4,989 nt of DNA from a virus (Duplodnaviria > Heunggongvirae > Uroviricota > Caudoviricetes). Shown here piece after piece: positions 1 to 4,989 of the stretch (position 1 is its first letter; the number at the start of each line of letters is the position of its first letter). The stretch is taken from the IMG/VR virus record IMGVR_UViG_2698536458_000008, positions 1-4,989 of that record, one strand, 5' to 3'. The notes under the pieces were generated by a model that saw nothing but the letters and a program-made list of their open reading frames with translations, ran no database searches and was not told the DNA's origin. The translations under genes and the position numbers were made by a program.

Positions 1-103
1 ATCAATAACTTAAACTGGTGGTGATGGTGACATAAAAATCAAAAAATACGCCTTTTTCCGCGAACCGCCCGCCCCGTGGACAGGCCACCCCCACCAGGAG
101 TAC

Positions 104-131
104 CTACAAAAAAGCCGGATTGCTCCGGCTT
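104..131 (-). terminator. Rho-independent terminator ending the minus-strand operon after the SSB-like gene
   Basis: On the minus strand: 8-bp stem AAGCCGGA / UCCGGCUU with loop GCAA, followed by a U-run (UUUUGU); it lies about 15 bp past the SSB-like stop codon (146-148). Confidence 0.6.
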
Positions 132-145
132 CTGTCACTCGTTGC

Positions 146-568
146 TTAAAACGGTATGTTATCCCCGTACGGATCATCATTCCCCGCCTGTTGTTTGGCC
201 CTGTTCAGTGCATCAGTGGCCTGCCCCTGTTGGCCTTTTTTACCGCCCGGTCGCGCCGTTCTGGCACTGATTACACTGTCTGCGATAACCTGCCAGCCCT
301 GCCGCGTTTCTCCGTTCTGGCCTGTCCACTGGCTTACCTGCATGTTACCCGCCACGCTCACCAGCTCGCCTTTCTGGTGCTTTGCCAGTGCGTCAGCCTG
401 TCTGCCAAACGCCAGGACGGATAACCATATCGTCGCCGTTCCGTCATCTGCCTGGCTGCACGGCAGGGGAACCGCCATACTCGCCATCGTCATTTGCGTA
501 CCCTTGCTGGTGGTCTTTAACTGCGGGTCAGCCACCAGCCGCCCGTAAGCCGCTATCTGTGCTGTCAT
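146..568 (-). CDS. ssb: Single-stranded DNA-binding protein (SSB family), 140 aa, accessory copy carried by the element
   Basis: OB-fold core collinear with E. coli SSB (IWLSVLAFGRQADALAKHQKGELVSVAGNMQVSQWTGQNGETRQGWQVIADSVI versus the [40 protein letters not shown] region), Gly/Gln-rich linker and a C-terminal tip ...DDPYGDNIPF resembling the canonical DDDIPF tail. GGAGAG Shine-Dalgarno 8 nt upstream; the ATG overlaps the upstream stop as ATGA (565-568). Confidence 0.85.
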   Translation of the reverse strand: MTAQIAAYGRLVADPQLKTTSKGTQMTMASMAVPLPCSQADDGTATIWLSVLAFGRQADALAKHQKGELVSVAGNMQVSQWTGQNGETRQGWQVIADSVISARTARPGGKKGQQGQATDALNRAKQQAGNDDPYGDNIPF

Positions 569-810
569 GCTGTCTGCTCTCCGGTTTTAACGTTGATGGT
601 TGTCACCTGTTCCGCTTCGGCAATCTCCCGTTCTGTCAGCGTGGCAAAGTTTGCCGCCGTCGTGGTCATGAATGCGCTTATCAGTTCGGGATGTGCTTTC
701 GCGTATCCTTCCCCGGCGTTGCGGTCGATGATTTTTATCGCCACCCTCAGCCAGTGTTCTGTCAAATCAAGGGCGTGAGATTGTGGTTTTTTGGCGTGCT
801 TCGTTGTCAC
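565..810 (-). CDS. Hypothetical protein, 81 aa, translationally coupled to the SSB-like gene
   Basis: ORF in the six-frame track beginning MTTKHAKKPQ; GTG start at 810-808 preceded by GAGG with a 7-nt spacer; stop overlaps the SSB start (ATGA). No family recognised by eye. Confidence 0.55.
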   Translation of the reverse strand: MTTKHAKKPQSHALDLTEHWLRVAIKIIDRNAGEGYAKAHPELISAFMTTTAANFATLTEREIAEAEQVTTINVKTGEQTA

Positions 811-854
811 AGGCTTTACCTCACAGCAATAAAATAAAATTTTTGCATTTTAAC

Positions 855-1084
855 CCTTCACCTGTTCACCTTTTGCAATTTTCCCTTTTTATTCATGATG
901 TTAATGGGTTAACAGTTTCACAAAAACTATTCACCAACTGTTCACCACTGTTCACCCTTAAAGCTCAATAAAGAATCAAAAAGGTGAACAGTGAATAGTT
1001 TGGTGAACAGTTCATAAATAACTGTTCACCCTATAATATACTGATATAAAAGACATTTATTGCAGGGTGAACAGTGGTGAACAG
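855..1084. repeat. Iteron-type replication origin (P4 ori-like): TGTTCACC octamers in both orientations around an AT-rich core
   Basis: Direct TGTTCACC at 863-870, 939-946, 949-956, 1023-1030, with degenerate copies at 855-862 (CCTTCACC) and 928-935 (TATTCACC). Inverted GGTGAACA at 983-990, 1003-1010, 1066-1073, 1076-1083, with a degenerate copy at 991-998. Tandem copies are phased at 10 bp (939/949 and 1066/1076). A perfect 9-bp inverted pair GGTGAACAG(1003-1011) / CTGTTCACC(1022-1030) flanks an AT-rich spacer, followed by the AT-rich stretch 1031-1062. TGTTCACC is the type I iteron bound by the P4 alpha protein at ori and crr. The array sits immediately 3' of the primase-helicase gene. Confidence 0.75.
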
Positions 1085-1113
1085 TTATTCCATAAGTTTA
1101 ATTTTTTCCATCG

Positions 1114-2916
1114 TCATTTGTGACCTATTGCACATGATGGCATCCAGTCTTCTGAATCCTCTGTCAGGGTCACATTTGAACGCAAACCGTGCTTCGTTTT
1201 CCGTTTCATATACTCCCTGCCATATTCCGCCATTGCCCCCGGCATATCTTTACCGAAGCGCGTCAGTGTTACAGGTTTACCGAATCCGTGTGCCCTCATA
1301 TATGCCAGATAGGCGTGATAAAGATACCTGCGCGGACTGAACGGAATAATTTCGGCATTACCCACTAACAGACCATCACACATTACCGACGACATGAGAT
1401 AGCCGCAGAAGTCCACCAGCGAATCGCCCTCGCGTTTTATCACCAGAGCTTCTTCTGATTTCTGCTGCTCATACAGCAGGCGTTTAGCTTCGTCCTGGTC
1501 AGAAAAACGAGTAAGCAGGTGGCGAATCACAACCGCCAGCTCTCCTTCTATTTTTTCTGCCAGCATGGGGTCGCGTTCGTTCTCCGGTACAACTTCCGAA
1601 AAATTGAATATCACCCGACGACGTGAGATCCCCCCGCTGCGGTCACTGAATGACATGGCGTTATTGTTAACCGCCAGCACTACTGCCGGAATACGCGTTG
1701 AGTAGGGGGCTTTGTGTTTCGGGTCAATTGCCACCTTGTCACCGCCTGTAATGGCCTTAATCCCTGCCCCATCACCAGCGTAGCGGGTCATATCCGGCAT
1801 GATAATCAGCGAAAAGCCAACCACTAACGCGCGTTCCCTTGCATCTTCCAGCGCCTTCATGCTTGCCGATACTGTGTTGGCCTTACCCGCCAGCATGGTG
1901 CAAATCTCCGCCATCACGCTTTTACCACTTCCCCCTGGACCTGTTACCTCAATGAATAACTGCCAGTCGTACCGGTTCGCCAGCACCATGAATAATACAG
2001 CCAGTACGCGATCCGCCTTGCGGTCATTCTCAGCCACCGAACGGCGTAACCACTTCCAGAAATTCGGCGCATGTGTTGCCAGCGTTTCCCCCTCTGCTGG
2101 TGGGCTGAAAGGTAATTCACTGGCAATTAACAACCAGTCGTTTTTGTTATGCTCCCGAAAATTACCTGTTCTGGTATCAAATACCCCGTTACTGAATCCA
2201 ATCAGGTTACGGGCTGTATTCCCCATTACAGGCAAACTTAACTTCATGGTATCGACCGCCGATTTAATGGCGTTCTGCGAATAGCTGATCTCCGCATCAA
2301 TGAAAATCTGTGCCATAGCTCGCTGTAATTCTTTATCCTGTACTGGCTCCCATACAACGCCGTTGTAATGGTGAACAGTGTCAGAGTCAGCATGAATCGC
2401 CAGTTCACCGCCATAATGTGCCAGGAGAACTTCGCCGCGTTGACTTGCTCCCATCTGGTTAAGCGCCAGTGATGAAGCGTTATCGTCTTTTACCCGCTCT
2501 TTTTTCTTTACAGGCAGTTCAACTACCTTTTTCTTTTCCGCCTGCTCTGCCCGTTCACGTTCCAGATATTCGCGCCAGTTCTCCCGTTTCTGGCTGTGCA
2601 TTCCTTCAGGGTAATAATCAGCATCCCTGACACCTGCCGCTGCCAGTTTCTGCCCGATGGTATTAACAAGCCCCGGACGCAATAACCCCGCCTGGTAGAG
2701 ACGCACCCGATAGCGTCCGTCCGGTACGATTTGCAGCTTATCCAGTTCGGCAAGTTGTTGTTCTCCAAGCCAGACAGGAGGCACGCTGTCGCCAGCCAGT
2801 CGCCCGTCCTGTTCCTGCCACTGCTTCGCATGTGCCCACGCATCATTACCCGCAAAAATGATGACTTCCGTCATTTTGTCACGCGGCTGGTGTTTTAAAT
2901 TTGGCGCTTTTTTCAT
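1114..2916 (-). CDS. Replication initiator: P4-family primase / D5-like SF3 helicase, 600 aa
   Basis: Walker A FIEVTGPGGSGKSV, Walker B-like LIIMPDMTRYAGD, SF3 motif C-like VVLAVNNNA, and a D5_N-like region upstream (VLLAHYGGELAIHADSD...HYNGVVWEP). Preferred start is the ATG at 2916 (MKKAPNLKHQ...), with GGAGAGAG 5 nt upstream and an ATGA overlap with the upstream gene; the ORF track extends 5 codons further to a GTG at 2931. The cognate iteron array lies directly downstream. Confidence 0.9.
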   Translation of the reverse strand: MKKAPNLKHQPRDKMTEVIIFAGNDAWAHAKQWQEQDGRLAGDSVPPVWLGEQQLAELDKLQIVPDGRYRVRLYQAGLLRPGLVNTIGQKLAAAGVRDADYYPEGMHSQKRENWREYLERERAEQAEKKKVVELPVKKKERVKDDNASSLALNQMGASQRGEVLLAHYGGELAIHADSDTVHHYNGVVWEPVQDKELQRAMAQIFIDAEISYSQNAIKSAVDTMKLSLPVMGNTARNLIGFSNGVFDTRTGNFREHNKNDWLLIASELPFSPPAEGETLATHAPNFWKWLRRSVAENDRKADRVLAVLFMVLANRYDWQLFIEVTGPGGSGKSVMAEICTMLAGKANTVSASMKALEDARERALVVGFSLIIMPDMTRYAGDGAGIKAITGGDKVAIDPKHKAPYSTRIPAVVLAVNNNAMSFSDRSGGISRRRVIFNFSEVVPENERDPMLAEKIEGELAVVIRHLLTRFSDQDEAKRLLYEQQKSEEALVIKREGDSLVDFCGYLMSSVMCDGLLVGNAEIIPFSPRRYLYHAYLAYMRAHGFGKPVTLTRFGKDMPGAMAEYGREYMKRKTKHGLRSNVTLTEDSEDWMPSCAIGHK

Positions 2917-3267
2917 TTCTGCTCTCTCCACGCGGCAATCATGTTTTTCAGTTCCTGTAGTTTTTTATCAACATCCATACATGACACATGGTTATTTCTG
3001 GAAAGCGGGATTTCCCGCCTGAATCTGCTAATAAAGATCTCCACGTTCAGCGAACTATGAAATGAATAGCCATCACGAATAAAATACACACGGTCAAACA
3101 TCAGTTCTTTTACCGTTACTCTGTTACCGTTCNNNNNNNNNNNNNNNNNNNNNNNNNNNNNNNNNNNNNNNNNNNNNNNNACCGTTCTTATCCAGATAAA
3201 TAGCGCCGGGGATAATTTTGGGGTGTGCATAACCGCTGGCAGTCAAGCCAGATAAATACGTTCTCAT
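2913..3267 (-). CDS. Hypothetical small protein immediately upstream of the primase gene, interrupted by a 48-N run (3133-3180)
   Basis: C-terminal part after the gap (NGNRVTVKELMFDRVYFIRDGYSF...AAWREQK) is in the ORF-track frame and its stop overlaps the primase ATG (ATGA at 2913-2916). Before the gap, the frame from the ATG at 3267 reads MRTYLSGLTASGYAHPKIIPGAIYLDKNG; the 7-mer accgttc flanks the N-run on both sides (3126-3132 and 3181-3187), and removing the gap plus one copy joins the two frames into one continuous protein (...YLDKNGNRVTVKELMFD...). Alternative start in the ORF-track frame at 3230. Product unknown. Confidence 0.45.
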
Positions 3268-3273
3268 GATTAT

Positions 3274-3594
3274 TTATCTCAGATTTGAATCAGTATTCGC
3301 TTTCTCTATGGCATTTAATGCATCTGTGGCATTTTCAATGGTGCACCGTAACGAAATATCAAACTGCCCAAGCATTGCCAGTAACAAGCCAATATTACCC
3401 ATGTCAATGCGCATAGCCTTTTCGTCATATTCCTCATTTTCTGACGCATGCCACATCAGGCTACCAATTGACGCAACAGCCATTGATATATTGTCAGTAG
3501 CCCCATCCGCAGCGGAATAAACCTTTTTAGCAATATCATGCTCACAGTTAAAATGCGGATTAATCAGGTACTGGTAATTGGTCATGTCAGGCAT
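3274..3594 (-). CDS. Hypothetical acidic protein, 106 aa
   Basis: ORF with a perfect AGGAGG Shine-Dalgarno 6 nt upstream of the ATG at 3594 (MPDMTNYQYLINPHF...); the ORF-track start at 3636 is 14 codons further upstream and lacks an RBS. TAA stop at 3274-3276. Start overlaps the preceding gene's stop by 8 bp. No family recognised by eye. Confidence 0.6.
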   Translation of the reverse strand: MPDMTNYQYLINPHFNCEHDIAKKVYSAADGATDNISMAVASIGSLMWHASENEEYDEKAMRIDMGNIGLLLAMLGQFDISLRCTIENATDALNAIEKANTDSNLR

Positions 3595-3784
3595 GGCACA
3601 CCTCCTGACGAATACGGGCGGCGAATACAGCAACACAACCTGACGGGCAACGGTTACGCGCTTCGCGTTCCGTCCAGGCGGTTACGTGGATGATTTGAGA
3701 TTCTCCGGCACTCAGGGCCAGAAAACGCCACACAAAGGCCGTTTGTGTGTGTACAAGGTGTGGTATATGATTTACGGCAACCAT
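3587..3784 (-). CDS. Small protein, 65 aa, possibly Icd-like (host cell-division inhibitor family); first gene of the leftward early operon
   Basis: ATG at 3784 preceded by GAGGAG with a 5-nt spacer (the ORF track extends 33 codons further upstream into a hairpin region without an RBS). Sequence MVAVNHIPHLVHTQTAFVWRFLALSAGESQ...TEREARNRC...VFAARI resembles, from memory, the Icd-like proteins annotated next to alpA in P4-like islands; that assignment is unverified. Confidence 0.5.
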   Translation of the reverse strand: MVAVNHIPHLVHTQTAFVWRFLALSAGESQIIHVTAWTEREARNRCPSGCVAVFAARIRQEVCHA

Positions 3785-3813
3785 AACGGCTCCTCGTTTA
3801 CGTTGTTGGTTAG

Positions 3814-3850
3814 AAGCCCTGCGAGTGGTAACGACACTTGCGGGGCTTCG
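3814..3850. other. Long stem-loop (15-bp stem, 7-nt loop) in the regulatory region between the divergent early operon and the RHH gene
   Basis: GAAGCCCTGCGAGTG (3814-3828), loop GTAACGA, CACTTGCGGGGCTTC (3836-3850). As plus-strand RNA all 15 positions pair (13 Watson-Crick plus 2 G-U); as minus-strand RNA 13 of 15 pair. It lies in the 5' leader of the 3784->3587 gene. Confidence 0.4.
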
Positions 3851-3885
3851 TCGTTTCAATTGCTGAATTGCATGTATCAGCACTT

Positions 3886-3957
3886 GTGGTATTCACATTA
3901 CATTTAGGTGAATACCATTTCAAGTCTTTTTTGGTATTCACTTTTGTATTACACTGC
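3886..3957. promoter_or_regulatory. Operator-like repeats (GGTATTCAC) in the promoter region upstream of the RHH gene
   Basis: GGTATTCAC at 3888-3896, its inverted copy GTGAATACC at 3908-3916 (11-bp spacer) and a second direct copy at 3933-3941, plus a degenerate GTATTACAC at 3947-3955, all within about 100 bp of the RHH start codon in an AT-rich region. Confidence 0.45.
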
Positions 3958-3984
3958 ATCCCGTTATTAATGGGAGGTGCAAAC

Positions 3985-4290
3985 ATGTCCAGGAGTTCTG
4001 TTAACAATAAGTCACAGCAACTGAATGCCAGATTTCCACATGAAGTAGTGAGTGGCATTGAGGCATCCCTACAGCCAGGGGAAACTAAAGCGAATTTTAT
4101 AGTTACGGCTGTACGCGGTGAGATCGCCAGGCGCCAGGCAGAAGGAAGTGGAGAAAATCCCCTTGTGTCTTCACTGGATGCCCTAGCTAATGTCGAACAA
4201 ATCGGCATCAAGGCAGCGGAGGAAATCGGGCAGCTTATCACCGTTGCACGCGAAGAACTCCAGCGCCGCAAGGCCAAAGAATCAGAATAA
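3985..4290 (+). CDS. Ribbon-helix-helix (Arc/MetJ/CopG-like) DNA-binding protein, 101 aa; candidate repressor of the element
   Basis: GGGAGGTG Shine-Dalgarno 5 nt before the ATG at 3985. N-terminus KSQQLNARFPHEVVSGIEASLQPGETKANFIVTAVRGEIARRQ fits the RHH beta-strand/helix/helix pattern (compare Arc QFNLRWPREVLD). C-terminal ~50 aa is helical and charged. Opposite orientation to all flanking genes. The ORF-track version starting at 3838 is an unsupported N-terminal extension. Confidence 0.7.
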   Translation: MSRSSVNNKSQQLNARFPHEVVSGIEASLQPGETKANFIVTAVRGEIARRQAEGSGENPLVSSLDALANVEQIGIKAAEEIGQLITVAREELQRRKAKESE

Positions 4291-4347
4291 TCACTATCAG
4301 CGCCGTGGTGTGAGGAACTCCGGCGCATTGCTTTACAGGCGCACACA

Positions 4348-4524
4348 ATGACCAACGAAGAATCAACCAAAAAAACATCACCTGCACGAAAAAGACGACG
4401 CAGAAAGAAAGAGCATGAATCAGAACGATTCGCGCCGTGTTCTTTTGCCCTTGAGAAGTACCTTAAAGAATACTCATCAAAGGAGAGAGCTTCGCAGTTA
4501 TGGCAACGCACTGAAACAGACTGA
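4348..4524 (+). CDS. Putative small basic protein, 58 aa, downstream of the RHH gene (uncertain)
   Basis: My own translation of ATG 4348 to TGA 4522-4524: MTNEESTKKTSPARKRRRRKKEHESERFAPCSFALEKYLKEYSSKERASQLWQRTETD. Same strand as the RHH gene and upstream of the plus-strand terminator, but no convincing RBS; below the ORF-track length cutoff. Confidence 0.25.
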   Translation: MTNEESTKKTSPARKRRRRKKEHESERFAPCSFALEKYLKEYSSKERASQLWQRTETD

Positions 4525-4588
4525 TAGCATTGCCCACCAGCCTGATAGCGGCTATCATTGACATGCTTATGTTTAGTGTTTCCAAACT

Positions 4589-4618
4589 GGCGACCGCCCC
4601 AGGTCGCCTTTGTTTTAT
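4589..4618 (+). terminator. Rho-independent terminator for the plus-strand RHH transcript (possibly weakly bidirectional)
   Basis: GGCGACC (4589-4595), loop GCCCCA, GGTCGCC (4602-4608), followed by TTTGTTTTAT. On the minus strand the same hairpin is followed by a poorer U-tract and lies just downstream of the AlpA-like stop. Confidence 0.65.
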
Positions 4619-4635
4619 GTGTCATATGCTCCCCT

Positions 4636-4845
4636 TTACACTGCCTTACCTGAATTAATGCGATCCCGGCTTTTAACCCATTCCATAACCTCGGACAGCA
4701 GCCACCCTACAGAACGACCGCCCAGATTAAGACGTGACGGAAAGCGCCCTTTTTTCTCCAGTTCGTAACGTGTAGTGCGGCACACTCCAGTTAACTTACG
4801 ACATTCATCCTCACGGATTACGCGATCTTCATTTATTTCACGCAT
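4636..4845 (-). CDS. alpA: AlpA/Vis-family phage transcriptional regulator (excisionase-like HTH), 69 aa
   Basis: MREINEDRVIREDECRKLTGVCRTTRYELEKKGRFPSRLNLGGRSVGWLLSEVMEWVKSR contains the AlpA-type motif (compare E. coli AlpA ...LGVKSVGWIEAEIDEWL). ATG at 4845 gives the family-typical ~70 aa; the ORF-track start (GTG at 4932) adds 29 residues of doubtful coding quality. Confidence 0.8.
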   Translation of the reverse strand: MREINEDRVIREDECRKLTGVCRTTRYELEKKGRFPSRLNLGGRSVGWLLSEVMEWVKSRDRINSGKAV

Positions 4846-4989
4846 ACAAAAACCTACATAAAAATTACGTATATAAACTTTTCTCTTAGCTGTAGATATA
4901 TGAGATCGGATATTACTTAGATTCTTTTTCACCTCTTAAATTAAAAACACAACCATGCTGGTAATGACTCCAACTTATTGATAGTGTTT

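Follow-up and report, generated by a model that had tools for sequence, protein, structure and literature searches.

Candidate operator boxes of a YlcI/YnfO-family protein in the divergent promoter region of a Gram-negative phage-inducible chromosomal island

The stretch of DNA analyzed here, 4,989 nt long (positions 1–4,989 of the IMG/VR record IMGVR_UViG_2698536458_000008, Caudoviricetes; hereafter "the window"), comes from a phage-inducible chromosomal island of the Gram-negative type (PICI, or capsid-forming PICI, cf-PICI). Between its leftward operon, which begins with an Icd-like gene, and a rightward gene for a YlcI/YnfO-family protein (hereafter ylcI), we found three exact and one degenerate copy of a 10-nt box. 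Comparison with related loci makes it reasonably probable, in our judgement, that these boxes form the operator of the YlcI-like protein encoded just to their right, within a divergent promoter region. Support for this reading comes from the fixed positions that the boxes hold in a conserved promoter scaffold and from the co-variation of their sequence with the N-terminus of the YlcI-like protein, but not with the type of AlpA or of the replicase. The protein would thereby become a candidate repressor for Gram-negative satellites, islands so far described as switched on by the AlpA activator.

The boxes and their co-variation with the YlcI N-terminus

All boxes sit in the 200-bp gap that separates the start of the icd-like gene (3784, minus strand) from the start of ylcI (3985, plus strand). 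The original prediction had described in this gap three exact copies of a repeat, two direct and one inverted, with 11-bp spacing in the inverted pair; our analysis confirmed both the copies and their location, with the correction that the unit is 10 rather than 9 nt long. The 9-mer GGTATTCAC occurs exactly at 3888–3896 (+), 3908–3916 (−) and 3933–3941 (+), and the true repeat unit, TGGTATTCAC, has its three exact copies (O1, O2 and O3; Table 1) within 55 bp, separated by gaps of 11 nt (O1–O2) and 14 nt (O2–O3). When the 200-bp intergenic region was shuffled 20,000 times with its dinucleotides preserved, 13 of the shuffled sequences had a 10-mer occurring three times (both strands counted) and 69 had such a 9-mer. 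Sites within one mismatch of the box number four in the entire window (0.86 expected), the sole extra one being at 2659. A degenerate fourth copy had also been proposed. An ungapped 6/10 match does exist (TGTATTACAC at 3945–3954), but it is the conserved −10 block of the rightward promoter, and the homologous fourth box is O4 (3954–3963). The 9-mer CTGCATCCC stands unchanged in the window at 3954–3962 and is seen at 2 mismatches in the near-identical relatives L001 and L002.

We compared 37 loci encoding YlcI-like relatives (eight from a contig scan, with further classes added by exact-protein look-ups), found in E. coli, Shigella-like genomes, Yersinia, Klebsiella, Enterobacter, a Serratia-type metagenome contig, Photorhabdus, Xenorhabdus, Phytobacter and one contig labelled Martelella. 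They contain 20 distinct intergenic regions, and the alignment of the 130 bp upstream of the gene revealed one scaffold across the loci, composed of a conserved CAAG/TTGAC block, a T-run, a TTTTGTGTATA(A/C)TG block and a ribosome-binding site. The scaffold also has four segments that vary (at about −99, −76, −53 and −30 relative to the start of ylcI); within a locus they are copies of one another, mostly in the orientation + − + −. They differ between classes, while the promoter blocks that lie between them (TTGAC, the T-run and TGTGTATA(A/C)TG) remain constant. The three exact boxes of the window match the first three of these positions, and O4 the fourth, where a good box is present in L032, L022, L010, L030 and L017.

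Box sequence and the N-terminal beta-strand region of the YlcI-like protein change together, one-to-one; for this region we distinguish about eight strand classes, each with its own box, and at residues 10–17 we found QQLNARF, QMKNIRF, QLTTVRV/QMTTLRV, KQISIRI, QSLTARI, QALAARV and KKLEARV. The window belongs to the QQLNARF class, whose E. coli members have the box TGGTATTCAC; more generally, this strand is accompanied by (G)GTATTCAC or ..ATTCAC boxes in E. coli, Yersinia and Phytobacter, and the Yersinia and Phytobacter proteins with a QQ(L/I)NARF strand retain the ATTCAC core. The QLTTVRV strand goes with GTGTGTTTCA (E. coli, Photorhabdus, Xenorhabdus), KQISIRI with TGTGATTCAG (E. coli), QSLTARI with GTGTAAG.. 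(Klebsiella, Enterobacter), and KKLEARV, found in a short form of 59 aa, with TGTCAGCCAC (E. coli). Distant hosts that share a class have retained its boxes, and their spacers between O1 and O2 have diverged (L032 compared with L012–L016; L025 compared with L010). Among the loci compared, the N-terminal class of the YlcI-like protein is the only feature that predicts the box sequence. Upstream of the K-12 ylcI gene in DLP12, which encodes a distant short-form relative in a different context beside nohD, no similar box array was found.

Predicted promoters and the YlcI-like protein

Promoters were called by a simple position-weight scan for the sigma-70 consensus at 17 representative loci, and all elements named below are predictions. 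The best leftward candidate (P_L) lies at the same scaffold position in all 17, with a TTGAC-type −35 element at about −70 to −61 and a 17–18-bp spacer to the −10 element; in 12 of the 17 the −35 is exactly at −67 to −62 and the −10 exactly at −90 to −85. This −10 reads TAAnnT, TAnnGT or TAATAT in 16 representatives (CAATGT in L015), and in each of the 17 it falls between boxes 1 and 2. For the rightward promoter (P_R) the −10 is placed at −36 to −31 or −35 to −30 in most loci scanned, and in the window a T-run (3927–3932) stands in place of a −35 element.

Locating the promoters relative to the repeats had been suggested as a check on the original prediction, and its outcome agrees with an operator: at the level of prediction the boxes overlap core elements of both divergent promoters, and their positions are kept in the 17 representatives. 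O1 reaches over the last two bases of the P_L −10 and over the predicted transcription start, and O2 occupies the spacer of the same promoter directly beside its −35. On the other side O3 lies between the T-run and the P_R −10, in the −35/spacer region, and O4 overlaps the end of the P_R −10 and the predicted P_R start. The two halves mirror each other: start-box, −10, box, −35 on the left, and −35 region, box, −10, start-box on the right.

The protein encoded by ylcI in the window matches the NCBIfam model NF041551 (YlcI/YnfO N-terminal domain) with 60.3 bits (cut-off 30) over residues 9–50, and its homologues bear the RefSeq name "YlcI/YnfO family protein". PHROG 6522 and PHROG 949 are both annotated as "unknown function", and our search of the literature on YlcI/YnfO found no functional study. 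The N-terminus displays an Arc-like strand-helix-helix pattern (QQLNARFPHEV...), followed by a long C-terminal helix; alignments and the model give for the family the pattern K-S-x-x-x-x-x-R-[FVI]-P-H-[ED]-[VI] and place two predicted helices after it. The residues that vary between classes are the alternating positions 12 and 14, beside the nearly invariant Arg16, which is the arrangement that would be expected of a DNA-reading beta-strand. Q12-N14-R16 of the window protein align with Gln9-Asn11-Arg13 of Arc, which we take to be the contact residues of its recognition strand (pairwise BLASTP E-value 4e-4 over 15 residues). An AlphaFold2 (AF2) model of the monomer contains helices at residues 19–26, 35–53 and 59–100, with block-mean pLDDT (predicted local distance difference test) values of 78–94 over residues 61–100.

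Matches of family members to Pfam are all below the threshold, and among recognizable DNA-binding families they fall mainly into the ribbon-helix-helix (RHH) group, represented by seven families: PSK_trans_fac, CB_ParB_C, RHH_5, Arc, HicB_lk_antitox, CopG_antitoxin and RHH_1. Pfam yielded no above-threshold match for the YlcI-like protein, and searches with N-terminal domains alone gave nothing; sequence searches of the PDB with the protein and with the family profile found no RHH match, and structural comparison of the model returned no informative match. We consider that the YlcI-like protein is probably an RHH (Arc/Mnt-like) DNA binder with a long C-terminal helix. For the C-terminal half (residues 50–101, window 4135–4290) we detected weak helix-hairpin-helix-like matches around LDALANVEQIGIKAAEEIGQL (Hef, E-value 0.014; Pol beta, E-value ~0.2; range in the PDB 0.014–0.3), which conflict with the single long helix of the AF2 model. 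This half is well conserved, and different N-terminal halves are joined to it in different classes, which suggests recombination inside ylcI. One distant member of the family, P0166 (122 aa), contains two tandem strand-helix-helix units in one chain, as would suit a single-chain pseudo-dimer; its AF2 model, made from the single sequence with no alignment, was of low confidence and unusable.

The gene directly downstream of ylcI is variable or absent: there is none in L006, L025, L032 and L035, an unrelated 178-aa open reading frame (ORF) in L022 and a 58-aa basic ORF in the window. A type II toxin-antitoxin module, with an RHH antitoxin and a toxin, was considered and rejected, since ylcI has no conserved co-transcribed partner downstream.

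Proposed mode of control, alternatives and known systems

We propose that two back-to-back promoters, P_L leading leftward into the icd-like/primase/SSB operon and P_R leading rightward into ylcI, would be controlled by one YlcI-like dimer per 10-bp box. Dimers on boxes 21–24 bp apart could be tied together through their C-terminal helices (residues 59–100), and they would be bound on the same face of the DNA, because 21–24 bp corresponds to two helical turns. Occupancy of O1 and O2 would shut off the leftward replication/packaging operon, and occupancy of O3 and O4 would provide autoregulation of ylcI. Binding, its stoichiometry and an effect of repression rather than activation are all what we infer from the sequences. 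Derepression might be brought about by an anti-repressor of the helper phage, as for Stl in Gram-positive islands; or AlpA-driven leftward transcription might read through the terminator at 4589–4608 and across ylcI, bypassing the operator. The latter possibility is raised by the gene order: in the O157 island L008, which lacks ylcI, alpA, a 247-aa ORF and icd are co-directional, whereas in ylcI-bearing islands the ylcI cassette lies in the opposite orientation behind a terminator-like hairpin. Pseudomonas AlpA, an antiterminator, offers a possible analogy.

Several observations weigh against the proposal that the boxes are an operator of the YlcI-like protein. Both promoters are consensus predictions, and P_R is weak (score 5.8), with no real −35 element; autoregulation may likewise be weak in the window because O4 is degenerate. 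Orientation or identity of the boxes departs from + − + − in L009, L019, L028 and L011. The centre-to-centre spacing of 21–24 bp is wider than in the operators of Arc, Mnt, CopG, MetJ or omega. The assignment of the rightward gene to the RHH class, already made in the original prediction, is likely from the sequence pattern and the sub-threshold profile matches but remains putative. A repressor is also not required by current models, because the activator AlpA has been published as the master switch of Gram-negative PICIs (PMC6092414).

This last point bears on the alternative that the YlcI-like protein binds the boxes without being a maintenance repressor, acting instead as an activator of one promoter or as a transient down-regulator of the Cro/Arc type after induction, with AlpA alone deciding induction. 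In the E. coli PICIs studied, induction requires AlpA and AlpA suffices for it (PMC6092414), the existence of islands without ylcI such as L008 indicates that the basic life cycle can proceed without the module, and O3 is suitably placed for a class II activator to contact RNA polymerase at P_R, which lacks a −35. Set against this, the position of O1 over the predicted P_L start and of O2 in the P_L spacer is a geometry of repression, not of activation, and the scan gave a near-consensus P_L −35 in most relatives, so that on paper no activator is needed there; we regard this alternative as real but unlikely. We find it somewhat less likely still that another protein (a helper-phage regulator, a host factor or another island protein) binds the boxes and that their co-variation with ylcI reflects one inherited recombination block. 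Because the boxes adjoin the 5' half of ylcI, linkage alone would yield some co-variation, and there are apparent recombination breakpoints inside the gene; yet linkage leaves unexplained the concerted change of 3–4 copies per locus amid constant promoter blocks, as well as the retention of boxes across genera while the spacer between them drifts, and the YlcI-like N-terminus is the only class-specific candidate for DNA binding in the block.

AlpA itself is a known activator of Gram-negative PICI genes and of its own promoter (PMC6092414), and winged-helix proteins of the AlpA/Xis type often bind short repeats, so the boxes could be sites through which AlpA activates the leftward operon. The distribution of AlpA types makes this improbable: identical window-type boxes occur with three AlpA types, as little as ~35–40% identical (estimated by eye), and AlpA type B is found alongside four box classes as well as in the O157:H7 island L008, which has neither ylcI nor boxes. 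Moreover, we found no box upstream of alpA in L002, the region where AlpA acts in related islands. We attach the least credence to a reading of the inverted pair as an RNA hairpin (attenuator or terminator), or of the boxes as replication iterons related to the origin repeats. O1 and O2 could indeed pair as a 10-bp stem, but O1/O2 and O3 lie outside the transcripts that begin at the predicted starts, and no hairpin is conserved, given that the three boxes of L009 are all direct repeats and those of L019 and L011 have other orientations. The sharing of TATTCAC with the origin, pointed out in the original prediction, is real (at 928 and 991) but coincidental, with no link to the iterons: the 7-mer is present only in two degenerate origin copies, and the iteron proper is TGTTCAC(C). 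The further suggestion that the initiator or primase recognizes a related site found no support in the comparison, and iterons of an island initiator were rejected, since the repeat sequence does not follow the replicase type: window-type boxes occur with four such types (D5-type primases of 605 aa and 584 aa, RepA helicase and DUF927), and window-type primases (605–606 aa, same Pfam domains) accompany other box classes.

Control of a divergent promoter pair by an adjacent small DNA-binding protein, as the original prediction had it, is thus the reading that finds support, through the comparison of loci. An RHH-type repressor with repeated boxes over divergent promoters would be a classical arrangement, well known from the immI region of phage P22, where the RHH repressors Arc and Mnt act at the divergent Pant and Pmnt promoters. 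The resemblance includes a small strand-helix-helix protein, operators overlapping two divergent promoters one of which drives the protein's own gene, a Q-x-N-x-R pattern shared by QQLNARFPHEV of the window and QFNLRWPREV of Arc, and, in Mnt, a C-terminal helical tetramerization domain comparable to the long C-terminal helix of the window protein. Arc and Mnt differ in having one 21-bp operator with two adjacent half-sites ~10–11 bp apart, in contrast to four 10-bp boxes 21–24 bp apart; besides, the window protein has no above-threshold match to Pfam Arc, and it is encoded by a satellite island, not by a phage. NikR, in which two RHH dimers sit on half-sites ~16 bp apart and are joined by a central tetramerization domain, offers a parallel to the 21-bp centre-to-centre distance of O1 and O2, and omega of pSM19035, whose dimers each bind one short non-palindromic repeat, direct or inverted, is reminiscent of the mixed box orientations among classes. 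The window lacks the metal-binding domain of the former, and the contiguous heptad arrays, the ParA partner and the plasmid partition context of the latter.

Novelty would reside in the satellite setting, in which such a regulator appears to be undescribed. Stl and Rpr, the repressors of Gram-positive PICIs (Staphylococcus aureus pathogenicity islands, SaPIs, among them), are much larger helix-turn-helix proteins and hence not homologous to the YlcI-like protein. They resemble it in the proposed role of keeping the island silent, and in that the regulator is divergent from an excision/replication/packaging operon with the control region in between, as at the stl-str promoters (PMC6092414). Such master repressors have been described only for Gram-positive islands, and the founding paper on Gram-negative PICIs presents AlpA as an activator that acts on its own promoter (PMC6092414); the paper on helper-embedded PICIs distinguishes integration, Bro, replication and late zones, with no mention of the ylcI gene (PMC10111431), and the word "repressor" appears nowhere in the cf-PICI preprint. 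P4 immunity likewise controls entry into a leftward early operon of the icd/eta type in a P4-related satellite, by means of the CI RNA on the left-operon leader, and some relatives of the window carry an "ash family" remnant between icd and ylcI. There, however, the agent is an RNA that causes premature termination, whereas the candidate described here is a protein with DNA boxes at a promoter, and a scan of the whole window against Rfam (E-value up to 1) found no C4/isrK immunity RNA. The same scan gave only spurious matches to microRNA families, in the palindromic iteron array of the origin and, once, in the box region. Our searches of the literature on YlcI/YnfO, on PICIs together with ribbon-helix-helix proteins and on AlpA antitermination turned up neither this gene nor the boxes.

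If these proteins are indeed operator-specific repressors with several exchangeable specificities, a function could be assigned to a common uncharacterized family (long-form ylcI is present in 654 of 5426 complete E. coli genomes, ~12%, with up to three copies per genome), it would be understandable how several related satellites in one cell stay independently regulated, and a set of compact repressor/operator pairs, mutually orthogonal, could be drawn upon, in which a simple code relates strand positions 12 and 14 to the inner bases of the box. As a more speculative extension, which we hold only tentatively and would not yet bet on, long-form YlcI/YnfO proteins could fill the place of the missing master repressor in many Gram-negative PICIs and cf-PICIs, a large subset of them, with at least 7–8 interchangeable "immunity" specificities, each with a four-box operator. 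Co-resident satellites would then be silenced independently and induced by helper anti-repression or by AlpA read-through.

The island and the remainder of the control region

The minus strand of the window encodes, in this order, the Icd-like gene, a 106-aa ORF, a DUF4222-type gene, a D5-type primase/helicase, then, beyond the iteron origin, an 81-aa ORF and SSB; on the plus strand ylcI is followed by a 58-aa ORF, beyond which lie a hairpin, the convergent alpA gene and the end of an IS1 element (Table 1). The closest complete relatives are chromosomal islands of E. coli, 87–95% identical over parts of the window, in which an integrase gene lies beside alpA and, in one case, capsid and small-terminase genes are present; the leftward operon runs on into capsid genes in relatives. 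The assignment to PICIs/cf-PICIs rests on alpA, the D5-type primase, the iteron origin and SSB in the window, and on integrase, capsid and terminase genes in the relatives. An integrase, AlpA, a primase-type replicase with a downstream origin, and capsid and small terminase genes are all found, some in the window and the others through the 87%-identical E. coli relative L001, which also has genes for an integrase, a major capsid protein, a decoration protein and a small terminase. A search of phage databases gave a single weak match to the primase, which was uninformative.

Table 1. Positions in the window of the candidate operator, the predicted promoters and neighbouring features
Feature	Position	Strand	Remarks
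Iteron origin, TGTTCAC repeats	863–1083		
D5-type primase/helicase	1114–2916	−	Pfam match
SSB gene	distal in leftward operon, after the 81-aa ORF	−	Pfam match
Run of 47 N	3134–3180		masks part of DUF4222-type gene, between the 106-aa ORF and the primase
Icd-like gene	3587–3784	−	NCBIfam NF033153; first of leftward operon
Stem-loop in leader of leftward transcript, inverted repeat I1	3813–3849	−	part of control region, not of operator
Box O1, TGGTATTCAC	3887–3896	+	exact; matches position ~−99 (from ylcI ATG), filled in related classes
Predicted P_L −10, TAATGT	3895–3900	−	17-nt spacer; in O1–O2 gap; predicted start ~3888
Box O2, GTGAATACCA on plus strand (inverted copy)	3908–3917	−	exact; position ~−76 in relatives
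Predicted P_L −35, TTGAAA	3918–3923	−	top-scoring leftward candidate; CAAG/TTGAC block conserved in alignment
Box O3, TGGTATTCAC	3932–3941	+	exact; position ~−53 in relatives
Conserved block TTTTGTGTATA(A/C)TG, window sequence TGTATTACAC	3945–3954	+	rightward −10 region; alignment of 20 intergenic regions
Predicted P_R (ylcI) −10, TACACT	3950–3955	+	score 5.8, weak; TATACT, TATAAT or TATAGT in relatives; predicted start ~3962
Degenerate box O4, CTGCATCCCG	3954–3963	−	6/10 to GTGAATACCA; position ~−30
YlcI/YnfO-family gene, 101 aa	3985–4290	+	NF041551; proposed cognate binder of boxes
Terminator-like hairpin	4589–4608		between ylcI/58-aa ORF and alpA
alpA	4636–4845	−	PF05930; convergent with ylcI and 58-aa ORF; AlpA type does not track boxes

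Outside the candidate operator, the leader of the leftward transcript contains a stem-loop that is kept in every lineage with differing stems (GAAGCCCC/GGGGCTTC, ACGCCCCG/CGGGGCGT, AAACCCG/CGGGTTT) and loops, and that is always followed by CTAACCA (3806–3812 in the window). About 350 further E. coli genomes share only this stem-loop part of the intergenic region, including islands without ylcI. Read on the plus strand, the stem-loop resembles an intrinsic terminator whose tail is rich in T. A second inverted repeat (CAATTGCTGA ... TCAGCACTTG, 3857–3866 and 3877–3886) is located where the leftward transcript is predicted to begin, immediately left of O1; it could stabilize the 5' end as a hairpin, or be an additional site for a protein. 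In its place other box classes carry a short inverted repeat of another sequence, e.g. CCTTGA...TCAAGG.

The Icd-like protein matches PHROGs labelled "transcriptional repressor" (phrog_1743 and phrog_6196) and has no recognizable DNA-binding domain; this label is probably an annotation carried over from phage immunity regions. The origin comprises eight TGTTCAC(C) iterons, divided between two inverted groups that flank an AT-rich centre, in addition to the two degenerate TATTCAC copies. Between ylcI and alpA lies a site of variable cargo, occupied in the window by the 58-aa ORF, which is highly basic (4348–4524), and in relatives (the interval in L001, L003, L004, L007, L022 and L028) by Bro-N or AntA/AntB-type genes, several small ORFs, the 178-aa ORF, or nothing. 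L001, the closest E. coli relative of the control region, is inserted in the portal gene of a lambdoid prophage with terminase genes flanking it (9452–12930 and 1–497 of L001), which is the configuration of helper-embedded PICIs (PMC10111431). The end of the window (4960–4989) is the terminal inverted repeat of IS1 (GGTAATGACTCCAACTTATTGATAGTGTTT), ~115 bp upstream of the alpA start, at a position where relatives have an alpA–int spacer of ~370–420 bp and the integrase gene. Because the IS1 end replaces the integrase side, this copy of the island may be without the alpA promoter region, the integrase or both.

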